A DNA stretch of 64,000 nucleotides from an uncultured Acidimicrobiaceae bacterium. Lineage in GTDB: Bacteria > Actinomycetota > Acidimicrobiia > Spongiisociales > UBA5794. How positions within the stretch are numbered: the first letter of the stretch is position 1; each line of letters starts with the position of its first letter. Position numbers and translations under genes: made by a program. The stretch is from NCBI GenBank assembly GCA_964579415.1, contig CAZOGW010000002.1, positions 14,612 to 78,611 of the forward strand. The letters are read 5' to 3'. Shown one piece after another: positions 3,183 to 45,075 of this stretch. The notes beneath the pieces were generated by a model that searched no databases, had not been told where the DNA came from, and saw nothing but the letters and a program-made list of their open reading frames with translations.

Positions 3183-3221
3183 TCACCGGTTAGACACCGG
3201 CCCCTCCTACACTCCGCCGCC

Positions 3222-21123: not shown

Positions 21124-23520
21124 TCAGGGGATGCTCACCTTCACCTCGCATCTCGTCGCCGTGTCCGTGCCGGAGCCGCCGTGGCAGGTGTCGGTGTTGC
21201 CGCCTCCGCGGAGGTCGTCGGCGCCGCTGCCGCCGTACAGGGCGTCGGCGCCGGCTCCACCCCGGATCAGATCGGGACCGGCGTTCCCGTAGAGCGTGTC
21301 GTTCCCTGCCCCGCCGTCGACGGTGTCGCTGCCGTCGCCACCGCGCAGTATGTCGCCCCCGGCCTCCCCGTGAAGGGTGTCGTTACCCTTGCCTCCGTAC
21401 AGAAGGTCGTCGCCGGTGCCGCCGAGGATCAAGTCGTTCCCGGTGTTTCCCCAGAGGCGGTCATGCCCTCCCCCGCCGTGCAGGTAGTCGCTGTCGCTGC
21501 CGCCGCGCAACCGGTCGTCCCCTCCGGCACCACGGAGCGTGTCGCGACCTGTGCCGCCCCCCAGCTTGTCGTTCCCGGGACCCCCGTAGAGCAGGTCGGC
21601 GTCGGAGCCGCCGCTGATCTCGTCGTCGCCCCGCTGGCCGTAGAGCCGGTCGACCCCGCCCTCACCGTAGAGGCGGTCCTTGCCGGTGCCGCCGAGGATC
21701 AGGTCGTCGCCGACCCCGCCATGGATCGTGTCGGCTCCGCTCCCCCCGAAGACCACGTCGTTGCCGGGACCGGCGTAGACGCGGTCGTTGCCGGAGCCTC
21801 CGCAGATCACGTCGTTACCGCCGCGGCCGTGGATCACATCGTGACCCCGCCCCGCCCAGATGATGTCATTCCCCTTGGTGCCGTAGATGACGTCGTTGCC
21901 CGAGGTGCCCAGGATGGTGGCCCGCTCTCTGGTACACCACCACGCCTCGTTGTCGGCGGTGGCCGTATCGCACTTCCACCCGGCGGGGACGAACCACGAT
22001 GTCGGCGAGGCGCCAGGGATCGCCGTGTTGCCCAGGTACACGTCGAGGACGCCGTTGGTGCGGAGCAGGAACAGGTCGTCACGGCCGTCGCCGTCGAAGT
22101 CGTTGGCGAGGACGTCCGCCCAGGCGCCGGAGGCGGGCAGCGTCCTCGTCTCGTTGACTGTGCCATAGCCGTTGAGCAGGATGCGAACCTTGGCCCGGTC
22201 GATCGCATACAGGTCGGGCAGGTCGTCGACGTTGCGGTCGCCGAGGGTGAACTGCCACGAGCGAGTGTCGCCGAGCGGGGTTGCGGTGTCGGCGAGCTTG
22301 GACTTGTAGCCTCCCTTGCCGTTCCACACCTCGACCCGGGTGGCGGTCGCCGAACGGCGGATGACGAACAGGTCCTGCACGCCGTCGCGGTTGTGGTCTC
22401 CCAGCAGGTAGGCGGCGCCGGCCGAAGGCTTGACCGCGGTCGACAACTTCACGGTCTTCTTGAACTCCTTGGAGCGTAGAGCCACCTCCATCGCCACCGT
22501 GGAGCCTTTGCTGTCGATGAACCAGATGTCGGTGCGGCCGTGGCGCTCGTAGTCGGCGTAGGCGACCAGGCGACCACGCCGCGTCACCGCCGGCACCACG
22601 AACGACGAGGCGGCGCAGGCCCGGTGCAGTTGGTGGGTGCGGGAGAACTCCACCAGGAGGGAGGTGCCGGCGTCGCCCACCTCTACGACATCGGCGAGGC
22701 CGTTGCCGGTGAAGTCGGCCAACGCCTGCGGCTTGCCCGCCTCCGTGGGACCGATGGCGGCGACGTCGTAGGTGGCGGCGAGGGTGGTGAAGTTGGCCGG
22801 GCTGGTGGTGGGCGGGTACGGCTTGGGGACGGTGCCGTAACCCGGGGTGGCGTTGGGGCCCATCCAACTGAAGTGCATGGTGTCCTTGATGTCCATCCAG
22901 TCGCCGCCCCAGCAGAACCCGGCGTCGCGCCACGCCTGGACGAACCAGTCCGGCATGTCGGTGATCTTCGTGTTGTCGGAGCGGTAGGGGTTGGTGGTCC
23001 AGTTGATGTCGATGGTGGCGCCGAAGGTGTGGTTGGAGATGCTGAAGGAGCCACCCACCGTGCGCGGCACGTAGGTGGCGGTATCGCCGCTGCGGATGCG
23101 GTAAGGCTTACCGGGATTGGCGGCGGCAGCGGCGACGAGGTTGGCGCCTGCCTTCTGGAACGCCGGGAGCGCCCGCTCGTGGACCCTCACCACCTTGCCG
23201 CCGCTCAGCGGCACGGTCCAGTTGACCAGTTCGCTCGAGAGCTGGCCGATGGTGCGCCCGAAGAAGTCGCCGCGGTACCCGCGTATCCGGTCCGGCGACG
23301 ACAGCGGGCCGGAGCGGGTATGGAGCGGGTTCGACGTCGACGGGGGGCCGCAGCCCGCCGACTCGTTGAAGGAGGGGAACCCGCCACCTTCCCCGGCGAG
23401 TCCTTCCCCCAGCCCGTCGCCATGCGCCGGGTGATAACCCTCATGCTCGGGGGGGATCGGGTCGTCCGCAGGCTGGGACCAGGCCGGAGGCGCCGTCATC
23501 GTCACCAGGCCGAGCGCCAT
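21124..23520 (-). CDS. Secreted three-part protein: LAS/M15-like (VanY-type) D,D-peptidase domain, FG-GAP/VCBS repeats, then C-terminal RTX beta-roll
   Basis: Signal-peptide-like MALGLVTMTAPPAWSQP; the ORF is open further upstream, so the start is uncertain. Peptidase-like region SGDTATYVP...HTFGATIDINW...DTMHFSW. FG-GAP motifs (DFTGNGLADVV, GDHNRDGVQDLFVI, NDFDGDGRDDLFLL). About 25 GGxGxD repeats and a terminal CHGGSGTDTATRCEVKVSIP cap. Confidence 0.7.
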   Translation of the reverse strand: MALGLVTMTAPPAWSQPADDPIPPEHEGYHPAHGDGLGEGLAGEGGGFPSFNESAGCGPPSTSNPLHTRSGPLSSPDRIRGYRGDFFGRTIGQLSSELVNWTVPLSGGKVVRVHERALPAFQKAGANLVAAAAANPGKPYRIRSGDTATYVPRTVGGSFSISNHTFGATIDINWTTNPYRSDNTKITDMPDWFVQAWRDAGFCWGGDWMDIKDTMHFSWMGPNATPGYGTVPKPYPPTTSPANFTTLAATYDVAAIGPTEAGKPQALADFTGNGLADVVEVGDAGTSLLVEFSRTHQLHRACAASSFVVPAVTRRGRLVAYADYERHGRTDIWFIDSKGSTVAMEVALRSKEFKKTVKLSTAVKPSAGAAYLLGDHNRDGVQDLFVIRRSATATRVEVWNGKGGYKSKLADTATPLGDTRSWQFTLGDRNVDDLPDLYAIDRAKVRILLNGYGTVNETRTLPASGAWADVLANDFDGDGRDDLFLLRTNGVLDVYLGNTAIPGASPTSWFVPAGWKCDTATADNEAWWCTRERATILGTSGNDVIYGTKGNDIIWAGRGHDVIHGRGGNDVICGGSGNDRVYAGPGNDVVFGGSGADTIHGGVGDDLILGGTGKDRLYGEGGVDRLYGQRGDDEISGGSDADLLYGGPGNDKLGGGTGRDTLRGAGGDDRLRGGSDSDYLHGGGGHDRLWGNTGNDLILGGTGDDLLYGGKGNDTLHGEAGGDILRGGDGSDTVDGGAGNDTLYGNAGPDLIRGGAGADALYGGSGADDLRGGGNTDTCHGGSGTDTATRCEVKVSIP

Positions 23521-23720
23521 GGCAATCCCCACTACCCGCCGGCCACCACGGCGCAGTCCTTGATGAAGCTGTCGGCTCGTCACCCAGGCGAGGCTAACCC
23601 AGGTGGCGATATAGGCGACTTCCTCGCGGGCAGGCCCGTGCCCGGAAGCGGTTACTCCACGATGCCCTCCCCTGCCACTACAATCCACCCGCCGCCGCCG
23701 GGCCATCCCCCGGGAGAACG

Positions 23721-26700
23721 ATGCACCGTTTCTTCAAACCTGCCATCCGCCCACTTCTGGAGGCGACGAAGCCTTCTCTGGTGGTGGAGATCGGCAGCGA
23801 CTGGGGCCACGGCACCGAACTGCTCGCCACCTGGTGCCACGCCAACGGGGCTGCCCTGCACATCGTGGACCCGCTCCCCAAGTACGACGTGGACGAGTGG
23901 GCGCAGCGATGGCCGGGATCCGTCACCTTCCACCTGGACTTGTCGCTCAACGCACTGGTCGATCTCGACGCCCCCGACATGGTGTGCATCGACGGAGACC
24001 ACAACTGGTACACGGTGTACCACGAGTTGGAGCTCCTGGCACGCTCGGCCAGCGAGGCGGGGCGCCCCTTCCCGCTGACGCTGTTCCACGACGTGGCATG
24101 GCCCTACGGCCGCCGCGACCTCTACTACGACCCGGCCACGATCCCCGAGGCTCACCGCCATCCCTACCGCAAGGGAGGGCTGGTCCCCGGCCAGCGAGCG
24201 CTGACGGAGAGCGGCTTCAACGACCATCTCGACAACGCCCTCCACGAGGGGACGCTCCGCAACGGGGTTCGCACCGCCGTCGAGGACTTCGTCGCCGACC
24301 GCCCGCACCTGGCGCTCCACGTCGTTCCCGGCCTGCATGGACTCGGCATCGTCGTCGACGACGCCGCCGATGCGGCCGTGCACGAGGCCATCGCCGACGT
24401 CACCGGCCCAAGCGGGCTGATGCGGGTGATCGAAGCCGTCGAGGAGGACCGGCTGGCACGGCTGCAGAGGCTGTCCGAGATGCAGAAGGAACTCGTGCAG
24501 GAACGGGAGCGCGCCGGGCGGACCCGGGCCGAGGCTGCGCACCACGCCGAGCGGGCAGAGGCGCTGGCGGCACAGGTGAGTGCGCTCGGCGAGAACCTCG
24601 CCGAGGCGCGGGCACAGGCCGCGGAACTGGAGACCCTCCTCACACGGACCCGGCTCCGGGTCAGGAAGGAGAAGCGGCTGGCGGCGAGACGGCAGCGAGC
24701 ACTCGACAAGAAGGTCCGGGCGCTCGACAGGTCCCAGCGGTCGCTCGCCACCGTCCGCAGCAGGCTCGATGCCGCCGAGGCGGAGTCACGTGCCCTCAAG
24801 CGTCGGCTCGGGGCTGCCGAGGCCGACTACTCGCGGCTCCGCAACCGGCGCTCGGTGCGCCTCACGTTGCGGATGGCCTCCCTGTTCCGCCCGCTCTTCC
24901 GGCTTCGCCGCGGCCAGGGGTCCCGCAAGACGTCGACGCCGGCGACGTCGGCACGGGACGACGGCGCCAAGGAGGGCAAGCCAGGTAGCCGACCGCCCGC
25001 CGGGGCGACCGCGCCCGCCGACCCGGCGCCCGTAAGGCTGACGCCGTCGACCGCCGCAGCAGCACAGCCATCGCCGGAGGCCGCCGGCCGGCGCCGTCCA
25101 CGACGGATCAGGTCGCCCCGGGCAGCCCGCGCCGGCCGGGCTCTCTGGGCGGGCTTCGGCGGCATCGCCTCCGCCGAACTGGACAAGCTGGTGCAGGCAC
25201 GGCACGACTCCCCCGCCGAGGCTTCCCGTGCCGCCCTGGAACTGGCCAGGTGGTGGCGCTACCACGGCGACCTCGACAGGGCGCTGGACCTGGCTCGCCT
25301 GAGCCGGGCGGCACGGCCTGACGCCCCCTGGTCACGGGACGGGCAGTTCCTCGAAGCAGACGTCCTCCACGAATTGGGGCTTGCCGAAGAGGGCCGGTAC
25401 CTGCTCGACCACATGCTGGAGGGGGCACCCGACGACCCGCACCTGTTGTTGCGCCTTGCCAACACCTTCGCCTCACCGGCGGGGCCTGCCGGCGATCGGG
25501 ACGACCTGACCCGGCTCGCCATCATCAATCAGGTCCTCGCCAACGCCGGGCTGTCTTCCCTCCGTCTCGCCGACGCCGGCAGGGGTTTGCGCATCGACAA
25601 CCTCGCCGGGACCGGCCCCGAGCCGGTGCCGCACCAGGGCCCGGAGCCGCTGGTGTCGGTGGTCGTCCCGGCGTTCAACGCCTCCGACTGGTTGGCGACC
25701 TCGGTCGGTTCCATCCTGGCTCAGACTTGGCCGCGGATCGAGGTCGTCATCGTCGACGACGCCAGCAGCGACGGGACCGTCGAGGTGGCGCAGGAACTGG
25801 CAGCCCGGGATCGGCGGGTCCGGGTGCTCCGGCAATCGACCAACCGGGGCGCCTACGCGGCACGCAACCGGGGGGTGGCGTCGGCAACAGGCGACTTCGT
25901 CACCGTCAACGACTCCGACGACTGGTCCCACCCGGAGCGCATCGCCCGCGAGGTGCGGGCCCTGGTGGACGATCCCGACATCGTGGGTGTGATGCCCCAC
26001 CGCAGCCGCGTCACCGCCGATCTGGTGTTCATCGAGCCCACGGTGCGGTCCCGCCCCGAACGGGTCATCCCCGACATCTCGTCGCTGATGGTGCGCCGCG
26101 CCACCCTCGAAGAGGTGGGGCCGTGGGACGAGGTCCGCGCCGCCGGCGACCACGAGTTCGGCAAGCGGCTCGAGGCGTACTACGGCCCGGAGGCGGTGTT
26201 ACGTATCCATCCCGAGGCGCCGATGTCGCTCTCCCTGCGCCTCCCCGAGTCGATCTCGGCGGCGGGAGCGACCTCCATCCTCTCCCGGCATCACGTCATC
26301 GGGGCTCGGCGTCTCTACCACCAGGCGCTGGCACACTGGCACGACTCGCCGTCGTTCCGGGAGTCGCTGCCGTTCCGACCGGGAGAACCGCGACCCTTCC
26401 CCGCGCCGCGACCGATCACCGACGGGGATCCGGGCGGCACCCGAACCCGTCCCGACCTGGTGTTCCTCTCCGACTTCACCCCGTCCGGGGCCACCGCCGC
26501 CGCCGTCGAGGAGCTGGCGGCACAGTCGTCGGCCGGGCTTACGACGGCGCTCGTCCACAACCCGTCCTACCACGGGCGCTTCCTCGACCCCATCAGCGCC
26601 CGGGTCTGGGACGCCGCCGGCAGCACCGCCCTGCTGCTCGGCAAGGACGAGCGGATCGACACCGATCTCCTCGTCATCCGGGATCCCTGGATCGCCGAGC

Positions 26701-27482
26701 ACTTCGTCGACGGCCTTCCCACCGTCACCGCCGCCCGCACCATCGTGGTCATCAACCGCCCACCGCACCGGTCGTCCGGGCGACCGGTCCCCGACCTGGA
26801 CACGGTGATACGCAACGTGCGAGCTCGCTACGGTGACCAGGTCGTGTGGTACCCCGGCGATCCGTCGCTACGGCGGTCCCTGGAGGAGCTACGAACCGGC
26901 GCCGCGGGCGGCATCCGCCTCGCCGCCGAGGATTGGGCCGACGTCATCGACGTCGACGCGTGGCGGGGACCGCTGCGCCGGGTCGACGGCCCCACGGTCC
27001 GGGTCGGCCTGAGCCGCCGAGGCGCCCAACCGGAAAGGCAGGTCGGCCTCCCGGATCTCTCGGCCCATCTGCACCACGGCGACGTCACCATCCACACTCT
27101 CGGAGAAGCCGAGTTCGGTGGCGGATCCCTGCCGGGTGCCGGGCCCGTCGATGACGCGGACCCGGTGAGGGACTTCCTCGACGGTCTCGACATCTACGTC
27201 CACCTCGACGCCTCCACCGGGACAACCGATCGGACCTTGCTCGCCGCCCTCGCCGTGGGTATCCCGATCGTGACCGGCACCGGCCTCGCTCCGCTGCTGG
27301 GCCCGGCGGCCGTCTACGCCGCGCCCGAGGATGTGCTCGACGCCATCTTCGACCTCCGTGACGACCCGCGACGGTACGAAGCGCAGGTCCGCAGCGGCTG
27401 GCGCCTCGTCGAGGAACGATTCAGCCACCAGGCCCACATCGAGCGCCTCGGCGAGCTACGCGCCGGAATCACCCTGCTCTGA
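23721..27482 (+). CDS. 1253-aa multidomain protein: class I SAM-methyltransferase-like N-domain, long coiled coil, GT2 glycosyltransferase domain, and a C-terminal GT-B-like domain
   Basis: N-domain: LVVEIGSDWGHGT...IDGDHNWYTVY (Methyltransf_24-like DGDH). Coiled coil: 260-400, ending in RSVRLTLRMASLFRPLFRLRRGQG. GT2 domain: LVSVVVPAFNASDWLATSVGSILAQTWPRIEVVIVDDASSDGT...DSDD. C-terminus: LDIYVHLDAS...LAALAVGIPIVTG. Confidence 0.7.
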   Translation: MHRFFKPAIRPLLEATKPSLVVEIGSDWGHGTELLATWCHANGAALHIVDPLPKYDVDEWAQRWPGSVTFHLDLSLNALVDLDAPDMVCIDGDHNWYTVYHELELLARSASEAGRPFPLTLFHDVAWPYGRRDLYYDPATIPEAHRHPYRKGGLVPGQRALTESGFNDHLDNALHEGTLRNGVRTAVEDFVADRPHLALHVVPGLHGLGIVVDDAADAAVHEAIADVTGPSGLMRVIEAVEEDRLARLQRLSEMQKELVQERERAGRTRAEAAHHAERAEALAAQVSALGENLAEARAQAAELETLLTRTRLRVRKEKRLAARRQRALDKKVRALDRSQRSLATVRSRLDAAEAESRALKRRLGAAEADYSRLRNRRSVRLTLRMASLFRPLFRLRRGQGSRKTSTPATSARDDGAKEGKPGSRPPAGATAPADPAPVRLTPSTAAAAQPSPEAAGRRRPRRIRSPRAARAGRALWAGFGGIASAELDKLVQARHDSPAEASRAALELARWWRYHGDLDRALDLARLSRAARPDAPWSRDGQFLEADVLHELGLAEEGRYLLDHMLEGAPDDPHLLLRLANTFASPAGPAGDRDDLTRLAIINQVLANAGLSSLRLADAGRGLRIDNLAGTGPEPVPHQGPEPLVSVVVPAFNASDWLATSVGSILAQTWPRIEVVIVDDASSDGTVEVAQELAARDRRVRVLRQSTNRGAYAARNRGVASATGDFVTVNDSDDWSHPERIAREVRALVDDPDIVGVMPHRSRVTADLVFIEPTVRSRPERVIPDISSLMVRRATLEEVGPWDEVRAAGDHEFGKRLEAYYGPEAVLRIHPEAPMSLSLRLPESISAAGATSILSRHHVIGARRLYHQALAHWHDSPSFRESLPFRPGEPRPFPAPRPITDGDPGGTRTRPDLVFLSDFTPSGATAAAVEELAAQSSAGLTTALVHNPSYHGRFLDPISARVWDAAGSTALLLGKDERIDTDLLVIRDPWIAEHFVDGLPTVTAARTIVVINRPPHRSSGRPVPDLDTVIRNVRARYGDQVVWYPGDPSLRRSLEELRTGAAGGIRLAAEDWADVIDVDAWRGPLRRVDGPTVRVGLSRRGAQPERQVGLPDLSAHLHHGDVTIHTLGEAEFGGGSLPGAGPVDDADPVRDFLDGLDIYVHLDASTGTTDRTLLAALAVGIPIVTGTGLAPLLGPAAVYAAPEDVLDAIFDLRDDPRRYEAQVRSGWRLVEERFSHQAHIERLGELRAGITLL

Positions 27483-27529
27483 CCGGTCCGTTCAGATCCG
27501 GACGCCCATGCACGCACGGCTCTACCGGC

Positions 27530-27553
27530 CACTGGCTACTGGCTACTGGCTAC
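27530..27553. repeat. Tandem heptamer array (ACTGGCT / GGCTACT)x3 in a convergent intergenic region
   Basis: Read directly: ccactggctactggctactggctacgcc. Confidence 0.85.
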
Positions 27554-27597
27554 GCCGCCGGCCACCAGGAACGTCGCCGAAATTGACGCGGCGGCCC

Positions 27598-29208
27598 TCA
27601 GGCGCCCTCGTCCCCGGCCACAAGAGACACTTCCTCCGCGGTGAGCGTCGAGCGCCACACATCCAGGGCACGGCCCATCCCCGCCCACATCGGATCGACC
27701 AGCGTGACGTCGCCGGATCCCCACTCCGGCAGTGGACCGTCGAGCACGTAACGTGACCGGAAGTCGTGCCCGTCGACGATGAACTCGTCGAACAACCTCA
27801 CGTTGTCTGCCCGGACCGCGCCCATCAAGGCGCGGCGGCCGTCCTCGGTGAGGAGCCGCGGTCGACCGGTACGGAGCGTGCCCTGTGACTTCTGCAGGTT
27901 GCGTCGTACCGCCTCCCGCTCCTCGACTTCGAGCAGCGGTGCCAGCACCAGGGCGACGAGCAGCTCGCGTTCGGAGAAGCTCACATTGTGGACCGGGGGT
28001 TTGTCGACCCTCAGTTCGACGCCGAGTCTGGAGGTCATGGCGTCGATGACCCCGGTGGGACCGCGGGCGGCGAGATGCTCGTAGGGGACGACGGTGAGGG
28101 AGCGGTCGAGGCGATCTCGGAGCAACTCGAGCACCGGCGTCCAGGTGAGCTGCGACGCGTCGACCCTGTCGAGGAAGGCATCGAAGGTCTTGGAGCCCCC
28201 CGCCTGCACCGACTGCACGTAGTAGGACTCGAGGAAGTCGGCCTGGTTGCGTACCGCGAACACAACGGACACGTCGGTGCCCGCCAGCGCCTCGGCGAGG
28301 ATGTCGACTCGCCGCGGTGCGTTCTGATAGAGAGGTCCGTCGAGCCGTGGCGAGGGGGCGCCGATGAGGGACTCGTCCGACACGAACACCGCGGCCGACT
28401 CCCGGACACTGCCCAGGTCGGCTGCCAGCGCCCGCGCCGCTTCCGCCCGGGCGCCCTCGTCTCCTTTCGAAGCCGTCCTCACCAGCTTGAGGGCTTCGGT
28501 GAGCGGGCCACTGCTGCGAATCTGGCACACCCACCCCTGCAGCGCCAGCTCGTCGCCGTGCCTGCGGAAGAACCGCTGTAGCGAGGTGGTGCCCGTCTTC
28601 GAGGCGCCCAGGTGAAGCACGACCCGGCGGCGATGATTCCCGTCACCTGCGTCGGATTCTCGACGGGTCCGGACCCAGACCGACGTCAGGGCGGCCCGGC
28701 TCTCCGCATCGACCCCGGAGCCGGGGTGGAAGTCCTGGCGGTGGTAGTCCCCGGCATCGAGCTGCCCGACGAGGGCCGTCACCGCGTCGGCCGGCGAACC
28801 GACGTGGTGCACCAGCACGACCTTCGGCTGGTGGCGGGCGACGGCGGCGGCAACCTGGGCGCCTCCATCCGGGTGGGAGACGGCGTCGAAGAACACCGCG
28901 TCGACACGCTCGGCAAGGTGGAACGGCTCGTGTTCCGCACCGACGACATGGAGGCGCCAGCGGTCCATCAGCTCGGGACTGCGGCGCATCGCGTCGAGGA
29001 CGACCAGGGCCCAGCCGGGATCGGATTCGACGGTATGGAGAACGGCTACCTTGTCACACCAGTACGGGGTCGCGGCACCGCCGCCCCATTCCAATCCGGT
29101 CATCCCGGGATCCAGCTGGGAAGCGGCGAACCCGGCCGCCCCCCCGGCGAGTTGCGGCGAGGCGTCACGGAACCGGCGCGCCTCGGCCGCCTCCAACGGT
29201 GACACCAT
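27598..29208 (-). CDS. PAPS-dependent sulfotransferase-domain protein with an N-terminal Rossmann-like extension
   Basis: 5'-PSB P-loop RRVVLHLGASKTGTTSLQRFF and 3'-PB motif VVFAVRNQADFLESYY. Start assigned to ATG 29208; in-frame GTG codons up to about 29340 are alternatives. The annotated 1041-aa ORF (to 30723) is rejected upstream of about 29340 as the shadow of the opposite-strand gene. Confidence 0.65.
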   Translation of the reverse strand: MVSPLEAAEARRFRDASPQLAGGAAGFAASQLDPGMTGLEWGGGAATPYWCDKVAVLHTVESDPGWALVVLDAMRRSPELMDRWRLHVVGAEHEPFHLAERVDAVFFDAVSHPDGGAQVAAAVARHQPKVVLVHHVGSPADAVTALVGQLDAGDYHRQDFHPGSGVDAESRAALTSVWVRTRRESDAGDGNHRRRVVLHLGASKTGTTSLQRFFRRHGDELALQGWVCQIRSSGPLTEALKLVRTASKGDEGARAEAARALAADLGSVRESAAVFVSDESLIGAPSPRLDGPLYQNAPRRVDILAEALAGTDVSVVFAVRNQADFLESYYVQSVQAGGSKTFDAFLDRVDASQLTWTPVLELLRDRLDRSLTVVPYEHLAARGPTGVIDAMTSRLGVELRVDKPPVHNVSFSERELLVALVLAPLLEVEEREAVRRNLQKSQGTLRTGRPRLLTEDGRRALMGAVRADNVRLFDEFIVDGHDFRSRYVLDGPLPEWGSGDVTLVDPMWAGMGRALDVWRSTLTAEEVSLVAGDEGA

Positions 29209-29466
29209 CGCCTGGCGAGCCGTGACCTCGGTCTCGAGCCGGTCGATGCGACCGAGGACGTCCGCGGTGGACTGCTTCACCACCGCGTCGCCCCTGAGAC
29301 GCTTCCATAGCTCGCTCACGTTACGCGCCTTCCCGTCACACACCGCGATCCGGTACCCGGCCGAAACCCGGCCATCGGTGTAAGACGGCACCTTAGGACG
29401 TACGCGGATCGCGGTGACCCTAAAATGCCGGTCGCTCTTCTTCCCCCACCAGCGAGGTGCCGGTTC

Positions 29467-32400
29467 ATGACCGTCGGGTTTGTCGTCTGGAACCCGTTCC
29501 AGGTGTTCCACATGGGACCCATCGCCGAACACCTCGACGACGTCGTGTTCCTGGTCGTCAACCGGTGGGGCCTGGAAGAGTTGCGCGCCGGTTTCGGGGG
29601 CAGCGTCGGCGCCTTCATCGACCGTCCCCACCAGATCGTCACCACGCGTCAGCTCACGGCGCTCGACGGGAAGCTGGACGCCCTGGTCTGCCCGAACCCG
29701 TTTCCCGGGATGAACGCCCTGGCGGCGACCCGCCGCGTCGGGATCCAGTACTCGATGACCAAGGAGAGCTACCAGTACGGCACCTGGCGGTCGCAGTTCG
29801 ACGTGAACCTGGCCTACGGCGACTACACCGTGGGCAAGCTGCTCCGCTACGGCCCCGCCGTCGCCGTGGGGAACCCCCGGTTCGCTCCCTGGTTCAAGGG
29901 CGCTGACGAGCCGGCGCCGCCTTCGCCGCGCAAGACGGTCATCTACCTCCCCACCTGGGGCGAGTTCTCGTCGGTGCCCCGGTTCCTCCCCGCCATCGAG
30001 GCGCTGCAGGCCGACTACGAGGTCATCGTCAAGCTCCACCACAAGATCCACCTCACCGAACCGGACAAGACGGCGCAGCTGCAGTCGTCGGGCATCAAGA
30101 GCTCCTTCCTCCCCCACGACGATCTGCTGCCGCAGCTGCGCCGCGCCGACCTCGTCATCAGCGACTACAGCGGAGCGATCTTCGACGCCATCTACGTGCG
30201 GAAGCCGGTGCTGCTTCTCCAGGAGGACCCGGCGAGCCTCATCGGTGACAAGTTCACCTTCGACAGCATCGAGTACTCCCGGCGCGACGACATCGGCCCC
30301 GTGGTGGCGTCTCCCGCGCAACTGGCCGACACCGTCGCCGCCGTCCTGAATGGCTCGATCGACTACCGGGACGCCAACGAACGGCTCCGGGCCGAATGCT
30401 TCGCCGAAGACGTGCACGCCGCCGAACGGTGCGCCGAGGTGATCGACACCGTGGCGCACCAGCGCACGAACCCCCTCTCCCCCCGGTCCCACAGCAACAG
30501 ACCTGTGGTGGCGCCGGAGCGACCAGTGGAGCAACGCATCCTCCGCCTCGAGCAACAGCGCGCCGCCGGCGCCGGAACCTCGACCCCGGCCGGGGATGCA
30601 CAGGAGCACCTGCGGGCCCGGATGCGCCAGTCGGTCAGGGCGGCAGCGGGCGCCGCCGGCGCCGGCACGTTGCTGCCCGCCCTGGCGGCGGCACCCGGCC
30701 CTCACGGGAAAACGACCCGCCACCTGGCGGTCCGCACCGCACTGCGCGTCTCCGCCGACCCGTCCGTGGCCATCCGATCACTGGAGGCGTTGCAGCGTCG
30801 GGACCGGCTCGATACCGGGCAGCGGCTGTGGCTCGCCGACCTACTGTTCGTCACCGGCCGCGGCGACGAGGCGGCGCGGCTGGTCGAGGGGACAACCGGC
30901 ACCTCCGCCCCCGATCTCCTCAAGACGCTGGCCCGGGCCTACGAAACCCTGTCCGGCCCGGCGGCGAGTTGGAACACCCTCACCGGGTTGGTCTCGCCGG
31001 CGCCGGTTCCCGCCTCCAACAACGGGCTGCTGGCATCGACTCCCCTCTCCGTGGACGACATCCTGCGACGGGTGACTACCAACGCGGCGTCGATCGCCAC
31101 CGACTGCACCGAGTTCGAAACGGCGGCCGAGCTGTACGCCGAGTTGCTCAAGCTGGACGACGACGTGGCCGACCTCCACCACGGGTACGGAAAGGCGCTG
31201 GGCGGCGCCTTCCGGCTCGACGAGGCACGGCAGGCCTACGCCGAGGCGTTGCGGCGTGGCCCCTTCGTGGACACCTACCAGCGTTCCTACGCTTCCTCGT
31301 GCTCCAAGGCGGAGGACTGGGAGGGTGCACACCACGCCTGGCTGCGACCGCGCCGCGATCAGGTGCTGGACGCCAGCGCCGCCCTCGGCGCCGTGCGCCG
31401 GGAACGCACCGCCTTCGACACCCTCGATGCCGCCTTCACCGACCCTGTCGTGGTCTCCTCGCCGGCGTTCCGTGATGCTCTGGAGGACAGCGCCGCAGTG
31501 GCGCCGCTGCGCCCCGCCGAACAGTGGATGGCGCTGCACTGGCGGCTGATCCGGCTCGGAGCCTTCTCCGCCGCCTACCGGGTCAAGGACCTGGCGGCGT
31601 GGAGTCTCCTCGGCGACCTGTCACGCAGCAACGGCAACGATCCCCGCAGCACGGTGCGCCTGTCGCGGGCGCTCGTCACCGTGGGAGAGCACGACGAGGC
31701 GCGCCGGCTGCTCTCGTTGTGGCTCGCCGCCTCCACCGATGAGCCGGAAGGGCGCGCCGCCGTCACCAAGGCGCTGGCGGACCTCGACCTCCTCCAGGGG
31801 GAGACGTCGTCGATCGTGCGCTGGTTCGCCGCAGCCGCGGTCGATCGCTTCCCCCAGGACGAGGGCCGCCGCATCGCCCGGGACGTCTTCGAGGGGCGCC
31901 GCGTCGCCATCGTGGGCCCGGGTCGGCCGCCCGAGGGAGCCTCCCCCGACCGATTCGACGCCTACGACGTGGTGGTCCGACCCAACCTGTTCCTCGACGC
32001 CGCAACCGCCGCCGCCACCGGCTCGGAGCGCACCGACGTCGCCTACTTCAACAGCGGCATCACCCGGCTCGGACTGGACGACCTGCTCGACGTCGCTGCC
32101 GGCCAGGGGGTACGTCAGGTGGTGCTGAGGCGACCCCGCGACCTGGGCCTGCTCGCTCCCCGCCTGCGCTCGGGCAAGGTCCGTTTCGTCGACATCGAGC
32201 CGTCGTGCCACCTGTTCGCCTCCTCCTTCGGCATCCAGCGGATGTTGTACGACATCAACCTCTACCGGCCCCGCACCATCGACGTGTTCAACGTCGATTT
32301 CTTCGCCGGGGCGGTCGAGTACGTCGACGGCTACAAGATCGACAACGCCGACATCAGCTTCCGCGGGTACACCCATGACTTCCGTGGCGACTTCATCCTC

Positions 32401-32514
32401 TCGCGGAACCTGCGCGCCAGCGGTGCCGTCGGGTTCGACCCGGTGGCCGACGCCATCCTCGACCTCGACGTCGCCGCCTACCTGGAACTCCTCGACGCCA
32501 AGCCGTCGGAGTGA
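29467..32514 (+). CDS. 1015-aa fusion: N-terminal TagF/TagB-like CDP-glycerol glycerophosphotransferase-family domain, a helical repeat (TPR-like) middle, and a C-terminal domain with a sialyltransferase motif-L-like signature
   Basis: RBS gaggtg upstream. TagF-family: RKTVIYLPTWGEFSS (compare YAPTWR) and ...ADLVISDYSGAIFDA. C-terminal domain: RRVAIVGPGRPPEGASPDRFDAYDVVVRPN, resembling sialylmotif L / Cst-type GNGPSL...DVxRxN. See findings. Confidence 0.65.
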   Translation: MTVGFVVWNPFQVFHMGPIAEHLDDVVFLVVNRWGLEELRAGFGGSVGAFIDRPHQIVTTRQLTALDGKLDALVCPNPFPGMNALAATRRVGIQYSMTKESYQYGTWRSQFDVNLAYGDYTVGKLLRYGPAVAVGNPRFAPWFKGADEPAPPSPRKTVIYLPTWGEFSSVPRFLPAIEALQADYEVIVKLHHKIHLTEPDKTAQLQSSGIKSSFLPHDDLLPQLRRADLVISDYSGAIFDAIYVRKPVLLLQEDPASLIGDKFTFDSIEYSRRDDIGPVVASPAQLADTVAAVLNGSIDYRDANERLRAECFAEDVHAAERCAEVIDTVAHQRTNPLSPRSHSNRPVVAPERPVEQRILRLEQQRAAGAGTSTPAGDAQEHLRARMRQSVRAAAGAAGAGTLLPALAAAPGPHGKTTRHLAVRTALRVSADPSVAIRSLEALQRRDRLDTGQRLWLADLLFVTGRGDEAARLVEGTTGTSAPDLLKTLARAYETLSGPAASWNTLTGLVSPAPVPASNNGLLASTPLSVDDILRRVTTNAASIATDCTEFETAAELYAELLKLDDDVADLHHGYGKALGGAFRLDEARQAYAEALRRGPFVDTYQRSYASSCSKAEDWEGAHHAWLRPRRDQVLDASAALGAVRRERTAFDTLDAAFTDPVVVSSPAFRDALEDSAAVAPLRPAEQWMALHWRLIRLGAFSAAYRVKDLAAWSLLGDLSRSNGNDPRSTVRLSRALVTVGEHDEARRLLSLWLAASTDEPEGRAAVTKALADLDLLQGETSSIVRWFAAAAVDRFPQDEGRRIARDVFEGRRVAIVGPGRPPEGASPDRFDAYDVVVRPNLFLDAATAAATGSERTDVAYFNSGITRLGLDDLLDVAAGQGVRQVVLRRPRDLGLLAPRLRSGKVRFVDIEPSCHLFASSFGIQRMLYDINLYRPRTIDVFNVDFFAGAVEYVDGYKIDNADISFRGYTHDFRGDFILSRNLRASGAVGFDPVADAILDLDVAAYLELLDAKPSE

Positions 32515-32519
32515 CCCAC

Positions 32520-33707
32520 ATGGCGGTGTTGTGCGTCATACCTGCCCGCGGCGGATCCAAAGGTATCCCCGGGAAGAACCTGCGCCGGGTCGGTGGGTTG
32601 ACGCTGGTGGAGCGAGCGGTCCGGTCGGCGCTGGCGGCCGAGCGGGTCGACAGGGTGGTGGTCAGCACCGACGACACCGAGATCGCCGCCGCGGCTCGGC
32701 GCAGCGGGGCCGGGGTGGTGCACCGACCTGCCGATCTGGCCGCGGATACCTCCACCAGCGAGTCCGCCCTGGTCCACGCCGTCGGATCGGTGCTCGGCGA
32801 GCCGGGTGACGGCGACGTGCTGGTCTTCTTGCAGTGCACCAGCCCCCTCATCGATCCGGCGGACATCGACCGGGCTGTCGCCATGGTCACCGAGGGGGGC
32901 TACGACTCCGTCTTCTCGGCGGTTCGGTCCCATGCCTTCGTGTGGCGAGAGGAGGATGGCGGCGCCGTCGGGGTGAACCACGACTGGCGGGTGCGCCTGC
33001 GCCGCCAGGATCTGCCTGCGGAGTACCGCGAGACCGGTGCGGTCTACGTGATGCGTATCGCCGGCTTCCTCGAGAGCGGGCACCGGTTCTTCGGGCGTGT
33101 CGGCATCTGCGTCGTGTCCGCCACCCACGGTATCGACATCGACGCCGCCGAGGACCTGGAGATGGCTCGCTTCGTAGCCCGGCGGGCGGACCCGGGCCCC
33201 CTCGCCGGCCTGGACCCGTCGCGGGTGACGGCGATGATCACCGACTTCGACGGGGTCCACACCGACGATCGCGCCTGGGTGGCCCAGGACGGGCAGGAGG
33301 CGGTCAGGGTGAGCCGGTCCGACGGTCTCGGGTTGGCTGCGCTGCGTGACTCCGGGCTGGCCCTGCTCATCCTCTCCAAGGAGCGGAACCCGGTGGTGCG
33401 GGCGCGGGCCGGCAAGCTCGGGATCGAATGTTTGCAGGGGATCGACGATAAACTGGCGGCTCTCCGCCGGTGGGCCGAGGGCAGGGGTATCGACCCGGCA
33501 GGGATCGTGTTCGTCGGCAACGACAGCAACGACGTGCCGTGCCTCGAGTTCGTCGGATGGCCGGTGGTGGTCGCGGATGCCCACCACTCGGCCCACGCCA
33601 CCGGGGCGATGACGACGCGGCGGCGCGGCGGCGCCGGCGCGCTGCGGGAGATCGCAGACCGGCTGCTGGCCGGCCCGGGCCCCTACGGATGGCAGATCGA
33701 ACAGTGA
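32520..33707 (+). CDS. neuA: Acylneuraminate (nonulosonate) cytidylyltransferase fused to a C-terminal HAD-IIIA (KdsC-type) sugar-phosphate phosphatase
   Basis: N-terminal CMP-sugar synthetase motifs (VIPARGGSKGIPGKN...FLQCTSPL). C-terminal HAD motifs (DFDGVHTDD..., VGNDSNDVPCL). GTG 32511 is an alternative start overlapping the upstream stop. Confidence 0.8.
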   Translation: MAVLCVIPARGGSKGIPGKNLRRVGGLTLVERAVRSALAAERVDRVVVSTDDTEIAAAARRSGAGVVHRPADLAADTSTSESALVHAVGSVLGEPGDGDVLVFLQCTSPLIDPADIDRAVAMVTEGGYDSVFSAVRSHAFVWREEDGGAVGVNHDWRVRLRRQDLPAEYRETGAVYVMRIAGFLESGHRFFGRVGICVVSATHGIDIDAAEDLEMARFVARRADPGPLAGLDPSRVTAMITDFDGVHTDDRAWVAQDGQEAVRVSRSDGLGLAALRDSGLALLILSKERNPVVRARAGKLGIECLQGIDDKLAALRRWAEGRGIDPAGIVFVGNDSNDVPCLEFVGWPVVVADAHHSAHATGAMTTRRRGGAGALREIADRLLAGPGPYGWQIEQ

Positions 33708-33709
33708 GG

Positions 33710-34582
33710 ATGCAGATGAGCGTGATCGATGTCGGAGGACGCCCGGTCGGCGACGGTGAGCCTGTCTACGTCATCGCCGAGATCGGGATCAACCACAACG
33801 GCGACGTCGAGATCGCCAAGCAACTCATCGACGTCGCGGTGGAGGCCGGGTGCGACGCGGTGAAGTTCCAGAAGCGCACCCCCGAGATCTGCGTGCCGCT
33901 CGACCAGCGGGACAAGATGCGGGAGACGCCCTGGGGCGATATGACGTACCTGGCCTACAAGGAGCGCACCGAGTTCTGGGAGTCGGAGTACCGGCAGATC
34001 GACGAGCACGCCGCCGGCCTCGGTATCCAGTGGTTCGCCTCGCCGTGGGACGTGCCCTCGGTCGACTTCCTCGAAGGGTTCGGCGTACCCACCCACAAGG
34101 TGGCGTCGGCCAGCCTCACCGACGAGGCGCTACTCAAGGCGCTGGCGGCGACCGGCAAACCTCTCATCGTCTCCACCGGCATGTCGACGATCGACGAGAT
34201 CGACCGCGCCATGGAGTTGCTGGCGGGGTCGGATGTGGTCCTTCTCCACTCGACGTCGACGTACCCGTGCCCCCCCGAGGAATCCAACCTGAGGACCATC
34301 ACCACCCTCCGGGAGCGTTACCGCGTCCCGGTCGGCTACTCGGGCCACGAACGCGGGTTGCAGGTCACCCTGGGAGCGGTGGCGCTGGGAGCCGTCGCCG
34401 TCGAGCGCCACATCACCCTCGACCGGACCATGTGGGGATCGGACCATGCGGCCAGCGTCGAACCGCAGGGTTTGCGCCATCTGGTCCGCGACATCCGCAT
34501 CATCGAGACGGCGTTGGGTGACGGGGTCAAGCGGGTCTTCCCCGGCGAGGAGGAGCCGCGGCGGCGCCTCCGCTCGGCGTGA
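33710..34582 (+). CDS. neuB: NeuB-family nonulosonic acid synthase (TIM-barrel only, short form lacking the C-terminal SAF domain)
   Basis: VYVIAEIGINHNGD...AKxAG.DAVKFQKRT...LxSTGMSTIDEIDRAM...HSTSTYPCP. Start ATG 33710 is preceded by the gagga RBS, and its TGA overlaps the neuA stop. Confidence 0.85.
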   Translation: MQMSVIDVGGRPVGDGEPVYVIAEIGINHNGDVEIAKQLIDVAVEAGCDAVKFQKRTPEICVPLDQRDKMRETPWGDMTYLAYKERTEFWESEYRQIDEHAAGLGIQWFASPWDVPSVDFLEGFGVPTHKVASASLTDEALLKALAATGKPLIVSTGMSTIDEIDRAMELLAGSDVVLLHSTSTYPCPPEESNLRTITTLRERYRVPVGYSGHERGLQVTLGAVALGAVAVERHITLDRTMWGSDHAASVEPQGLRHLVRDIRIIETALGDGVKRVFPGEEEPRRRLRSA

Positions 34583-34592
34583 CGGTCGGCGC

Positions 34593-35327
34593 TCAGGAGA
34601 CCCGACGGAACATGAAGCTGGCGTAGTTGACGTCGGGGCGGATGTTGCGCACCTGCAACGGCTCGAACCCGGCCTCCCCGAGAAGCTGCCAGAACTCGTC
34701 GATGGCGTACGACGTGGCCGTGATGTAGTGAGATGCGTAGTCCCCGCTCTTGGGCAGGAACCGGGGATTGCCGTTGTCGTACCTGATCTGGATCAGGCCG
34801 AGCCCACCCGGCTTGGCGGCGCCGGAGAGGGCGTGCAGCACGGCCACGCCGTATTCCTTGCTGGGGAAGTGCTGGAAGACGGCGGTGCTCAACACGATGT
34901 CGAAGCTCTCCCGGTAGGGGGCCATGGCGTCGGCGGGAGCGCCGGTGAGGTGCACCCCGGTGAAGTCCCCGAAGCCGGCCTGCTCCGCCTGGGTGCGGCA
35001 CTCGTCGAGGTTCGGTCCCGAGATGTCGACGCCGACGTAGCGACGGGAGACGGGTGCCAGCGCCACCACGTTGCTACCCCCGCCGGGGCCCCACTCCAGG
35101 ACGGCCAGTCCCGCACCGGGAGCCAGGGGCGGTTGGGCGAGGCTGCGGCGGAACACGTCGAGTTCCCGCCTGACCCGGGTCCCGATGGCCAGCCAGGCGC
35201 GGTCGTCGGCGTAGCGCCCGAAGCCGCGCCAGTGGGAATGCTCCCGCTTCTTGTCGTCATGGGAGCTGCAGGCCCACACGTCGGCGGCGAGGCGCTGTTG
35301 TGCGATGAGGTCCGATTCCGATGTCAT
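34593..35327 (-). CDS. Class I SAM-dependent methyltransferase
   Basis: Motif I LAVLEWGPGGGSN and the later GGLGLIQI. About 244 aa; sits at the end of a minus-strand operon. Confidence 0.7.
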   Translation of the reverse strand: MTSESDLIAQQRLAADVWACSSHDDKKREHSHWRGFGRYADDRAWLAIGTRVRRELDVFRRSLAQPPLAPGAGLAVLEWGPGGGSNVVALAPVSRRYVGVDISGPNLDECRTQAEQAGFGDFTGVHLTGAPADAMAPYRESFDIVLSTAVFQHFPSKEYGVAVLHALSGAAKPGGLGLIQIRYDNGNPRFLPKSGDYASHYITATSYAIDEFWQLLGEAGFEPLQVRNIRPDVNYASFMFRRVS

Positions 35328-37663: not shown

Positions 37664-38599
37664 ATGATGCGGTGCCCGGTATGTGGCCGGTTGACCCGCT
37701 CGCGGAGCTATCCCTTCCTCAACGTGGGCCGGCACCGGCATCCGACCTTCGACGGCCGGCACCTGTCGGCCTGCTCCCGGTGCGACTCGATGTGGTGCAC
37801 CGACGCGCCCACCAACGGCGAGCTGGGCGACTACTACGCCACCAGCTACGTCCCGGCGAGAATGGGCGAGGCCGACAAGGACACCTGGCCCATCTGGGAT
37901 ACCCGGGCGTACTCGCAGATCATGCTGGCTCGCCTCTTCGTCGACTGGGCACCGGGAGACCTGTTCGTCGACGTGGGCCCGGGCAACGGTGCCGCCCTCT
38001 CCGTGGCGCCGCTGCTGCTGCGGGACGCCCACCTCGGATGTGTCGAGTTCAATCCCCACGCCATCGAGTTCTTCCGCCGCCACGTTCCCGACATCACGGT
38101 CACCGAGTCGATCGAGGAGTTCGCCCCGGGTTCGGCCAAGATGGTCTACAGCGCCCACAGCCTCGAGCACTACCGCCCCGGCGACGCCTTCGACGGTCTG
38201 CGCGGCATCGCCCGGGCCCTGGCGCCGGGCGGTGTCCTGGCGCTGGAGGTGCCGTGGGCCCCATCGGCCCGTACCATCGCCGCCGGACGCCACACCCCCC
38301 ATCTGTTGTTCTTCTCGCCCCAGGGCCTGCAGCGCCTGCTCACACGTGCCGGTTTCGAGGTGGTGTTGTGGTTCACCTCGCGGGGACGGCGCGGCAACCG
38401 TGACGCGGTGGCGGACCACCCGGTTCCCCCGGACCTCGGTCGTGGCCTCGCCGCCCGCCTCTCCACCTTTGTCACCGGCGACCTGATGGCCTCGGTCCCC
38501 CGCGACGGCCAGCCCATCAAAGGTGTCATCAAGGTCGTGGCCGTCAACGGCGGGCGCCGCCTGATCGGCGGTCAGGCAGATGCCAGCAGGATGCGGTAG
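37664..38599 (+). CDS. Class I SAM-dependent methyltransferase with an N-terminal Cys4 zinc-ribbon
   Basis: CPVCG...CSRCDSMWC zinc ribbon; motif I LFVDVGPGNGAAL; post-II GGVLALEVP. Its 3' end overlaps the convergent ADH gene by 28 nt. Confidence 0.7.
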   Translation: MMRCPVCGRLTRSRSYPFLNVGRHRHPTFDGRHLSACSRCDSMWCTDAPTNGELGDYYATSYVPARMGEADKDTWPIWDTRAYSQIMLARLFVDWAPGDLFVDVGPGNGAALSVAPLLLRDAHLGCVEFNPHAIEFFRRHVPDITVTESIEEFAPGSAKMVYSAHSLEHYRPGDAFDGLRGIARALAPGGVLALEVPWAPSARTIAAGRHTPHLLFFSPQGLQRLLTRAGFEVVLWFTSRGRRGNRDAVADHPVPPDLGRGLAARLSTFVTGDLMASVPRDGQPIKGVIKVVAVNGGRRLIGGQADASRMR

Positions 38600-44964: not shown

Positions 44965-45075
44965 CGTCCGCTGCGCGAGTCGAACCGGCGGCCAGACCAG
45001 GGGGATCCACCGGGGGAAACCCCGAGTTTACCTCAGCGTCATTTCCAAGGCATCATCATGCGGCGTCCGCTCACG

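Follow-up and report, generated by a model that had tools for sequence, protein, structure and literature searches.

A methyltransferase-fold and sulfotransferase fusion gene in a nonulosonate glycopolymer locus of an uncultured Acidimicrobiaceae bacterium predicts a sulfated sialic-acid-like polymer

Introduction

The stretch of DNA analyzed here, referred to as the window, comprises 64,000 nucleotides from an uncultured Acidimicrobiaceae bacterium (contig CAZOGW010000002.1, positions 14,612 to 78,611). Annotation of its predicted genes with Pfam and NCBIfam reveals one very large surface-glycopolymer region. The target of this study is a gene on the minus strand of that region, at 27598-29319, which encodes 573 amino acids (aa) followed by a stop codon. 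This coding sequence is supported by the open reading frame and by the profile of third-position GC content (GC3). The two domains of the protein are a C-terminal sulfotransferase-fold domain of the type dependent on 3'-phosphoadenosine-5'-phosphosulfate (PAPS) and an N-terminal domain with the fold of class I S-adenosylmethionine (SAM) methyltransferases. Together with its neighborhood, the gene predicts, without proving, a sulfated sialic-acid-like polymer.

Coding Sequence and Start Codon

Both sulfotransferase motifs fall in one minus-strand frame, which terminates with the stop codon at 27598-27600. The G+C content of the window is about 70%, and long spurious open reading frames are consequently plentiful; the frame of the target remains open up to 30723 only because it runs antisense to the next gene. 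The candidate start codons are GTG 29391, GTG 29343, GTG 29319, and ATG 29208. The public gene call uses GTG 29391, giving a protein of 597 aa, and GC3 reaches the coding level at about 29370. A Shine-Dalgarno-like sequence, GGGAAGG, can be read at 29328-29334 (-), 8 nt upstream of GTG 29319, and a start at this codon places five residues ahead of a KRLRGD motif that is kept at the N-terminus of the homologues. Because of this site and the family-conserved N-terminus, the gene is taken as 27598-29319, and GTG 29319 is most likely the start of a 573-aa protein. Initiation at ATG 29208 was rejected, as it would remove the family-conserved N-terminal helix containing KRLRGD (aa 6-11). The first-pass annotation was thus right to doubt the start, which did need correcting, but its ATG 29208 is replaced by GTG 29319.

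The same annotation had raised the possibility of a pseudogene, which the data contradict. The frame is open, GC3 is high along the coding part, and an independent Logan assembly of SRR16798009, 99.98% identical over window positions 23236-32071 and free of indels, encodes the same protein. Since a second assembly yields this protein, faulty assembly does not account for the fused frame, and the gene is no pseudogene.

The target appears to be monocistronic, being convergent with a gene ending at 27482 and divergent from a gene starting at 29425 or 29467. A scan for promoters and terminators around it gave nothing above shuffled background. A perfect 12-nt inverted repeat, CACCGCGATCCG / CGGATCGCGGTG, at 29341-29352 and 29405-29416, with 52 nt between the arms, lies immediately upstream of the Shine-Dalgarno site and GTG 29319, in the intergenic region of the divergent gene pair. 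By a rough estimate, about 0.15 such repeats are expected by chance in the region; the repeat could be an operator or form a hairpin in the 5' untranslated region. On the other side of the gene, where the target and the giant GT2 gene converge, their stop codons are 115 bp apart, and this gap holds a short tandem repeat (27522-27553), two copies of CTACYGGCYACTGG with GGCTACT-like units.

The Sulfotransferase Domain

The C-terminal domain occupies 27640-28632 (-), aa 230-560, including a family-specific C-terminal helical subdomain. Its 5'-phosphosulfate-binding (5'-PSB) loop, HLGASKTGTTSLQRFF, lies at 28567-28614 (-), aa 236-251, with Lys241 encoded at 28597-28599. The 3'-phosphate-binding (3'-PB) strand-turn-helix, VFAVRNQADFLESYY, follows at 28219-28263 (-), aa 353-367, with Arg357 at 28249-28251 and Ser365 at 28225-28227. 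Both motifs are present as quoted in the first-pass annotation. The Pfam model Sulfotransfer_1 (PF00685), for which the curated gathering cut-off is 22 bits, scores 25.5 bits against the whole protein (E 1e-5) and 27.4 bits against the domain alone.

An NCBIfam scan and a single-sequence search of the PDB with the target protein returned no match, and a word-indexed protein search with the single protein matched only the target itself; with the profile of the sulfotransferase family, the latter search yielded few matches, none of them named. The relatives emerge when 1.84 billion cluster representatives are scanned exhaustively with HMMER: 1,416 relatives pass E<=1e-3, and 296 pass 1e-10. The majority are standalone proteins with a length of 280-320 aa. 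The top-ranking ones, P0002, P0003, and P0004, show 36-41% identity, and the P0004 cluster contains proteins from metagenome-assembled genomes (MAGs) of Ilumatobacter sp. Because a Pfam sulfotransferase model is reached by just 3 of the 41 aligned members, the family is regarded as divergent and essentially unannotated. These approximately 1,400 cluster representatives constitute an uncharacterized sulfotransferase family that Pfam mostly misses. The remark in the first-pass annotation that such enzymes are rare in bacteria is therefore overstated for the family, while it remains fair for characterized bacterial polysaccharide sulfotransferases, which are few (PMC11625862).

Searching the PDB with the family profile retrieves sulfotransferases only: the Alicyclobacillus acidocaldarius enzyme 3rnl (E 7e-6), SULT4A1 (1.9e-4), and then SULT1 enzymes. 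The alignments span both binding elements, pairing the PSB loop of the target (HLGASK241TGTT) with the GAAKCGTSS loop of 3rnl and its 3'-PB element (VR357NQADFLES365YY) with RNPKDLVVSYY of SULT4A1. Residue conservation was counted at ungapped positions of 175 family sequences. Within the PSB loop, the counts are 161/165 for H236, 165/166 for G238, 158/167 for K241 (with Arg in six further sequences), and 157/167 for T242; elsewhere they are 150/171 for S314, 169/171 for E316, 171/171 for R357, 162/171 for S365, and 155/171 for Y367. All nine residues are retained in the target, and K241, R357, S365, and E316 are 95-100% conserved. Glu316 (28372-28374), near-invariant within the segment VSDESLIG at 28360-28383 (-), comes after a central strand and is a candidate catalytic base by analogy with the Glu bases of the NST and 3-OST enzymes (PMC11625862). 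The features that the same review gives for polysaccharide sulfotransferases, namely a Lys or Arg in the PSB loop, a Ser in the PB helix, and a His or Glu base, agree with the conserved residues of the target (PMC11625862).

The AlphaFold2 (AF2) model of the domain has a predicted local distance difference test score (pLDDT) mostly above 90. A Foldseek search with the two-domain model is noisy and lists CurM-ST, Teg14, and StaL among its matches. By motif and threshold tests, the protein is assigned to the PAPS-dependent sulfotransferase superfamily, as the first-pass annotation had predicted: the fold domain carries its Lys, Arg, and Ser intact, with PF00685 above the cut-off. The comparison with Stf0 and NodH suggested there did not hold up, as no similarity was detectable; Stf0 is absent from the PDB matches of the family profile at E<=10, and the NodH family model PF13469 (Sulfotransfer_3) reaches only 16.7 bits against a cut-off of 27.

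The N-Terminal Methyltransferase-Fold Domain

The protein begins with a long helix (29206-29316 (-), aa 2-38), whose KRLRGD motif at 29287-29304 is kept in the relatives P0010, P0012, P0022, and P0040. AF2 models place the helix over aa 2 to 36 or 38 with pLDDT 77-93. The class I SAM-methyltransferase-fold domain, delimited by AF2, Foldseek, and the family alignment, follows at 28666-29157 (-), aa 55-218. In the AF2 model of aa 1-232 (pLDDT 82.3), a 37-residue helix precedes a seven-stranded alpha/beta domain with strand order 1-7. A Foldseek search of the PDB with this model gave 963 matches at E<=1e-3; the top 50 consist entirely of class I SAM methyltransferases, among them RumA, Hen1, CbiT, MnmM, and COMT. 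Judging from the models, the N-terminal approximately 220 aa form a long helix plus a complete class I SAM-methyltransferase fold. The first-pass annotation had read this region as half of a Rossmann glycosyltransferase. An N-terminal half of a GT-B glycosyltransferase was rejected, as the top 50 structural matches include no glycosyltransferase and the methyltransferase fold is complete.

At the level of single sequences, the domain has no match in Pfam at E<=10. Its relatives give a chance-level match to Glycos_transf_2 in one of seven family members (E 0.045) and weak matches to Methyltransf_24 in three of the seven (best E 0.006); the domain is unrelated to the Methyltransf_24 domain of the neighboring giant gene (hhalign probability 2%). 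The HMMER scan also produced matches limited to aa 4-138, and a profile search with the N-domain yielded a 33-member family that is found in metagenomes only and has no Pfam domain in this region. Its members occur as standalone proteins of about 240-300 aa, as fusions to a C-terminal Methyltransf_11/25 domain, and, in the target only, as a fusion to a sulfotransferase.

The residues invariant in the 34-sequence family are E77, G79-G81, T84, P85, C88, H95, T96, E98, D109, D119, W121, R122, H124, and D145, all of which the target keeps. They map to the usual SAM-binding motifs: motif I, LEWGGGAATP, at 29065-29094 (-), in which W78 sits within E77-W-G79-G80-G81; LHTVES at 29023-29040 (-), where the acidic residue E98 ends strand 2; and the segment at 28882-28899 (-) with D145, an Asp after strand 4. 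This arrangement suggests that the domain may bind SAM.

Fusions of the N-domain to Methyltransf_11/25 are found in two metagenomic loci (L002 10001-11248 and L007 10001-11473). In the fusion proteins P0009 and P0151, the attached methyltransferase is 43-47% identical to the window methyltransferase at 34593-35327, and fusions of this type sit in a different context that lacks NeuB. Both loci share phosphoglucomutase, SPL, and PHO4 genes, a conserved neighborhood, and genes related to glycogen or alpha-glucan lie nearby (GlgE_C and alpha-amylase in L002, CBM_48 in L007). Because of these fusions in a non-NeuB neighborhood, the N-domain cannot be regarded as restricted to nonulosonate loci.

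The Fusion

The two domains are joined by a charged linker, RRESDAGDGNH, at 28633-28665 (-), aa 219-229. The linker has low pLDDT, and its counterpart in the standalone homologues P0002 and P0003 is their N-terminal extension. A second protein with both domains was not found in the exhaustive HMMER scan, although one would rank at the top; the fusion of N-domain and sulfotransferase is found only in the target. In one related metagenomic locus (L008), 151 bp separate a standalone N-domain gene (P0176) from the gene that follows it, which encodes a sulfotransferase belonging to the family of the target (hhalign probability 100%, E 5e-48). As this locus has both parts as neighbors, the target looks like a fusion of two adjacent genes, and the adjacency and the fusion together suggest that the functions of the two domains are linked. 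The same locus contains a second, divergent N-domain paralogue of 336 aa at 2801-3811 (hhalign 99.5%, E 1e-22).

Gene Content of the Window

The target is convergent with a gene for a 1,253-aa protein with Methyltransf_24 and GT2 domains and divergent from a gene for a 1,029-aa TagF-like protein with TPR repeats. This matches the position between a giant glycosyltransferase gene and a TagF-like gene given in the first-pass annotation, and NeuA-like and NeuB genes lie directly beyond. The former, identified like the following gene with Pfam and NCBIfam, encodes a cytidine monophosphate (CMP)-nonulosonate synthetase fused to a HAD phosphatase of the KdsC/Kdn-9-P-phosphatase type (NeuA-HAD; 32511-33707 (+)). 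The latter is a short NeuB-type synthase (33704-34582 (+)). Both are 50-78% identical to their equivalents beside the closest sulfotransferase and N-domain homologues. The fusion of synthetase and phosphatase points to a phosphorylated nonulosonate intermediate. Among the annotated window genes, neither NeuC nor any gene of the Pse or Leg pathways was recognized. Owing to the phosphatase fusion and this result, the nonulosonate of the locus is most likely 3-deoxy-D-glycero-D-galacto-non-2-ulosonic acid (Kdn).

Beyond NeuB, the region continues with methyltransferases, a GT8 gene, and an MptE-like gene; two Stealth genes lie at 42196-46785, and an initiating sugar transferase, rmlA, rmlC, and rmlD are also present. 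A glycopolymer ABC exporter of the TagGH/Wzm-Wzt type, likewise annotated with Pfam and NCBIfam, is encoded at 46769-48266 (-). Its ATPase of 256 aa is from end to end a TagH/Wzt nucleotide-binding domain without a carbohydrate-binding extension, and it is 53-56% identical to the ATPases in the related loci L004, L006, and L008. The phosphonate genes and O-methyltransferase genes that had been noted in the same locus are both present. The phosphonate set at 38572-42166 consists of a cytidylyltransferase-phosphoenolpyruvate mutase and a phosphonopyruvate decarboxylase, both above NCBIfam cut-offs, together with a phosphonate-type Fe-alcohol dehydrogenase. A TPR and LicD-like protein at 11189-12946 could transfer the phosphonate head group. 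The presence of all these genes does not imply a single polymer carrying phosphonate, nonulosonate, methyl, and sulfate; with enough glycosyltransferases, two Stealth enzymes, and a TagF-like enzyme in the locus, more than one polymer may be made.

The C-terminal 249 aa of the TagF-like/TPR protein (31765-32514) match no Pfam model even at E<=1, so that the label "sialyltransferase" attached to the gene is unverified, and they are unrelated to the nearby MptE-like gene. Residues 683-986 of this protein are 29% identical to a TPR protein encoded between the ABC transporter and NeuB in L004, and on this similarity the C-terminal part is a conserved, unannotated component of such nonulosonate loci. 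Another gene, at 15837-17897, encodes a 686-aa protein with a partial domain of the Sulfatase/alkaline-phosphatase superfamily (PF00884, profile positions 147-300). Instead of a sulfatase, this protein could be a transferase of phospho groups like LtaS or EptA, and its identity bears on any claim of sulfate or phosphonate decoration. Four further proteins carry many RTX calcium-binding nonapeptide repeats (10033-11154, 21124-23706, 48634-49929, and 59151-60371); two are fused to a polysaccharide deacetylase, one to an M15 peptidase and FG-GAP repeats, and one stands alone. Their genes are dispersed over a wall-polymer locus in a genome of high GC content.

Loci of Relatives

A scan of metagenome loci with a four-sequence alignment returned 19 loci, mostly short. 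All four of the closest sulfotransferase-domain relatives whose flanks are visible have NeuB and/or NeuA-HAD as neighbors. Three of them also show an ABC exporter nearby, which is not seen on the short L005 contig. In L004, P0003 is accompanied by two Sulfotransfer_2 genes, GT2, an ABC2 transporter, the TPR protein, NeuB, NeuA-HAD, and a gene of the alpha-2,8-polysialyltransferase family. P0204, from an Ilumatobacter-related cluster, adjoins NeuB in L005, and on a 22-kb JGI contig it comes after NeuA-HAD and an ABC transporter, together with a CST-I and GT8 protein, Methyltransf_24, and Sulfotransfer_1 genes. Sialyltransferase-like genes are thus present in two loci (A-2_8-polyST in L004 and CST-I on the JGI contig). 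The fragment L025 shows the same order of NeuA-HAD, ABC, and sulfotransferase, the last being 61% identical to the target over 33 residues. The standalone N-domain genes P0022 (L006) and P0176 (L008) belong to the same kind of locus. Between the window and L004-L006, L008, and L025, identities are 63-86% for NeuB, 50-55% for NeuA-HAD, and 53-58% for the ABC ATPase; the clusters are therefore orthologous and come from related organisms.

Among more distant sulfotransferase relatives (27-33% identity), one is found in an RgpF/ABC/Poly_export locus (L010), and another, in a Planctomycetaceae MAG (L003), has a NeuB-like gene and an ABC ATPase as neighbors. Some family sulfotransferases are fused to Stealth, to GT2 and GT4, to a second sulfotransferase, or to TPR and Methyltransf_24. 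Paralogous pairs of same-family sulfotransferases flank or adjoin genes for Stealth hexose-1-phosphate transferases in L009 (1933-5307) and L011/L012 (5343-10888), and P0015 is a Stealth-sulfotransferase fusion; this second recurring pairing suggests sulfated glycosyl-phosphate polymers. From neighborhoods and fusions, the family is associated with glycopolymers overall, and the clade of the target is tied specifically to nonulosonate loci.

Proposed Function and Alternatives

On balance, the target probably encodes a cytoplasmic PAPS-dependent O-sulfotransferase that modifies a nonulosonate polymer before its export by the ABC transporter, with the N-domain as a tailoring or docking module. 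In the mechanism proposed from these sequence features, PAPS would be bound by the K241 loop and the R357/S365 element of the C-terminal domain, and sulfate would be moved to a hydroxyl group of a sugar, E316 likely serving as general base. Most likely, the acceptor would be a nonulosonate-containing wall or capsule polymer, probably of the Kdn type. The adjacent genes for NeuB and the cytidylyltransferase-phosphatase would provide for its synthesis, and a lipid carrier on the inner side of the membrane would hold it during assembly. After sulfation, the polymer would be exported by the ABC transporter of the locus. The N-domain, normally a separate neighboring gene, may methylate the same polymer or dock the enzyme onto the polymer or its assembly machinery. 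Reading the target sequence by eye revealed no obvious N-terminal signal sequence, which fits cytoplasmic sulfation before ABC export.

Several observations weigh against this proposal. The PF00685 score lies just above the cut-off, with a small margin, and Foldseek with the two-domain model interleaves P-loop kinases with sulfotransferases at weak E-values. The N-domain of the target lacks a near-invariant insert of about 22 aa (RRtGRxxP...EDDYA) and, after strand 4, G146, R149, and Q150. The predicted genes of the 64-kb window that were scanned include no cysC/cysDN-like gene for PAPS synthesis, and literature searches gave no report of a sulfated teichulosonic acid. Finally, more distant relatives at 27-33% identity adjoin Stealth genes and not NeuB (L009, L011/L012, L015, and L017), and with two Stealth genes in the window as well, another polymer could be the acceptor.

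The last point leads to an alternative in which a Stealth-made hexose-1-phosphate polymer, or another glycan of the locus, is sulfated. The Stealth neighbors of those distant relatives, the fusion in P0015, and the Stealth genes of the window speak for this acceptor. It is nevertheless unlikely, as every visible locus of the target clade (34-41% identity, plus the L025 fragment) has NeuB and/or NeuA-HAD, none shows a Stealth gene, and the target itself is nearer to the NeuA-NeuB pair (about 3 kb) than to the Stealth genes (about 13 kb).

It is also doubtful that the protein is a chain terminator, in which a sulfate cap, with or without methyl, at the non-reducing end would stop elongation and set the chain length. 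This idea draws on an architecture resembling that of WbdD (PMC3482155): the target pairs a long helix with a methyltransferase fold and a P-loop domain for group transfer, and it belongs to a pathway that relies on an ABC transporter. The window, moreover, has only one copy of each domain family. The 256-aa ABC ATPase, however, leaves no room for a Wzt-type carbohydrate-binding module that would read such a cap, and the helix of about 37 residues is far shorter than the extended ruler of WbdD. Related loci, moreover, carry two or three different sulfotransferases, suggesting sulfation along the chain.

That the target is no working sulfotransferase, being a P-loop-fold relative with other, kinase-like chemistry or an inactive scaffold remnant, is very improbable: the best Foldseek matches do include a GPN-loop GTPase, PezT, thymidylate kinase, and adenylate kinase, few family members reach a Pfam sulfotransferase model, and the N-domain is partly degenerate, but the PDB profile search gives sulfotransferases only, the intact frame has coding-type GC3, and the strongly conserved 3'-PB Arg/Ser element is one that nucleotide kinases lack (PMC11625862).

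Significance

Sulfation of a nonulosonate polymer by the target would bear on a field in which Pfam models are biased to animal enzymes and miss bacterial ones (PMC11625862). The matrices of environmental biofilms contain sulfated and sialylated glycoconjugates for which the sulfotransferases are unknown (PMC10483923). The target gene points to a Pfam-missed family in glycopolymer loci, with one clade tied to nonulosonates, and offers a concrete candidate for the question of whether bacteria sulfate sialic-acid-like sugars. The fusion and the adjacent-gene arrangement give a first functional handle on an unannotated methyltransferase-fold family. The enzymology itself is predictable; the points of interest are the predicted sulfated nonulosonate product, the family missed by Pfam, and the unique fusion.

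A bolder extension is offered only tentatively. The clade may represent the first bacterial sialate or Kdn O-sulfotransferases, with uncultured Acidimicrobiia-like bacteria building a sulfated poly-nonulosonate on their surface. The N-domain would then be a shared adaptor coupling either a methyltransferase or a sulfotransferase to the polymer, and the fusion might make a chain-ending sulfate cap, with or without methyl. If true, bacteria would have their own counterpart to the sulfated sialic acids that deuterostomes carry.

Comparison with Known Systems

Among PF00685 enzymes, SULT4A1 (PDB 1zd1) and the A. acidocaldarius sulfotransferase (3rnl) resemble the target in the Lys of the PSB loop, the Arg/Ser strand-turn-helix of the 3'-PB element, and the PF00685 score. 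Sequence similarity does not extend beyond the PAPS-binding elements. As candidate base, the target has a Glu after strand 3, whereas SULT has a His, and the target differs further in its family-specific C-terminal helical subdomain of approximately 120 residues and in the fusion to a methyltransferase fold. CurM-ST (4gbm), Teg14 (3nib), and StaL (2ovb) are among the best structural matches; these are weak (E 2.6e-3 to 6e-3, 11-14% identity), and the acceptors of the three enzymes are small molecules. NodH, Stf0, and the KpsS of Mesorhizobium share with the target the proposed PAPS-dependent O-sulfation of a sugar in a bacterium (PMC11625862). These three show no detectable relationship to the target in sequence. 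The PSB residue of Stf0 is an Arg (PMC11625862), and the acceptors of these enzymes are a lipo-oligosaccharide, trehalose, and capsule fucose, in contrast to the nonulosonate polymer proposed for the target.

WbdD of E. coli O9a ends its chain with a methyl-phosphate cap and consists of a methyltransferase, a kinase, and a coiled coil (PMC3482155). It is a bifunctional tailoring enzyme of an ABC-dependent glycan pathway and, compared by architecture, resembles the target in that a class I methyltransferase fold is joined to a transferase of anionic groups and to a helical extension. It differs in that its transfer domain is a eukaryotic-type kinase and its coiled coil is C-terminal and long, and the exporter of the window lacks the cap-reading module of a WbdD-type system.

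In its proposed function and its motifs, the target can be likened to WSCD1 and WSCD2, the vertebrate sialate O-sulfotransferases, which depend on PAPS, possess 5'-PSB and 3'-PB motifs, and have the glycan, not CMP-sialic acid, as their substrate (PMC9304399). Unlike the target, they carry WSC domains, reside in the Golgi as type II membrane proteins, and belong to deuterostomes. No other characterized sialate O-sulfotransferase surfaced in the literature searched, nor did any report of a bacterial sialate O-sulfotransferase or a direct precedent for nonulosonate and sulfotransferase together in bacteria.

Streptomyces cell walls contain a teichulosonic acid of Kdn and galactose, often methylated, together with a minor poly(diglycosyl 1-phosphate) (PMC11481543). 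The loci for teichulosonic acids in actinobacteria resemble the window in their high-GC DNA and in having methyltransferases and glycosyl-1-phosphate (Stealth) genes alongside a nonulosonate pathway. No sulfation is described for them, and the closest sulfotransferase relatives of the target are found in Ilumatobacter MAGs. Among described polymers, those of the Streptomyces walls provide the chemistry closest to that predicted for the window locus.

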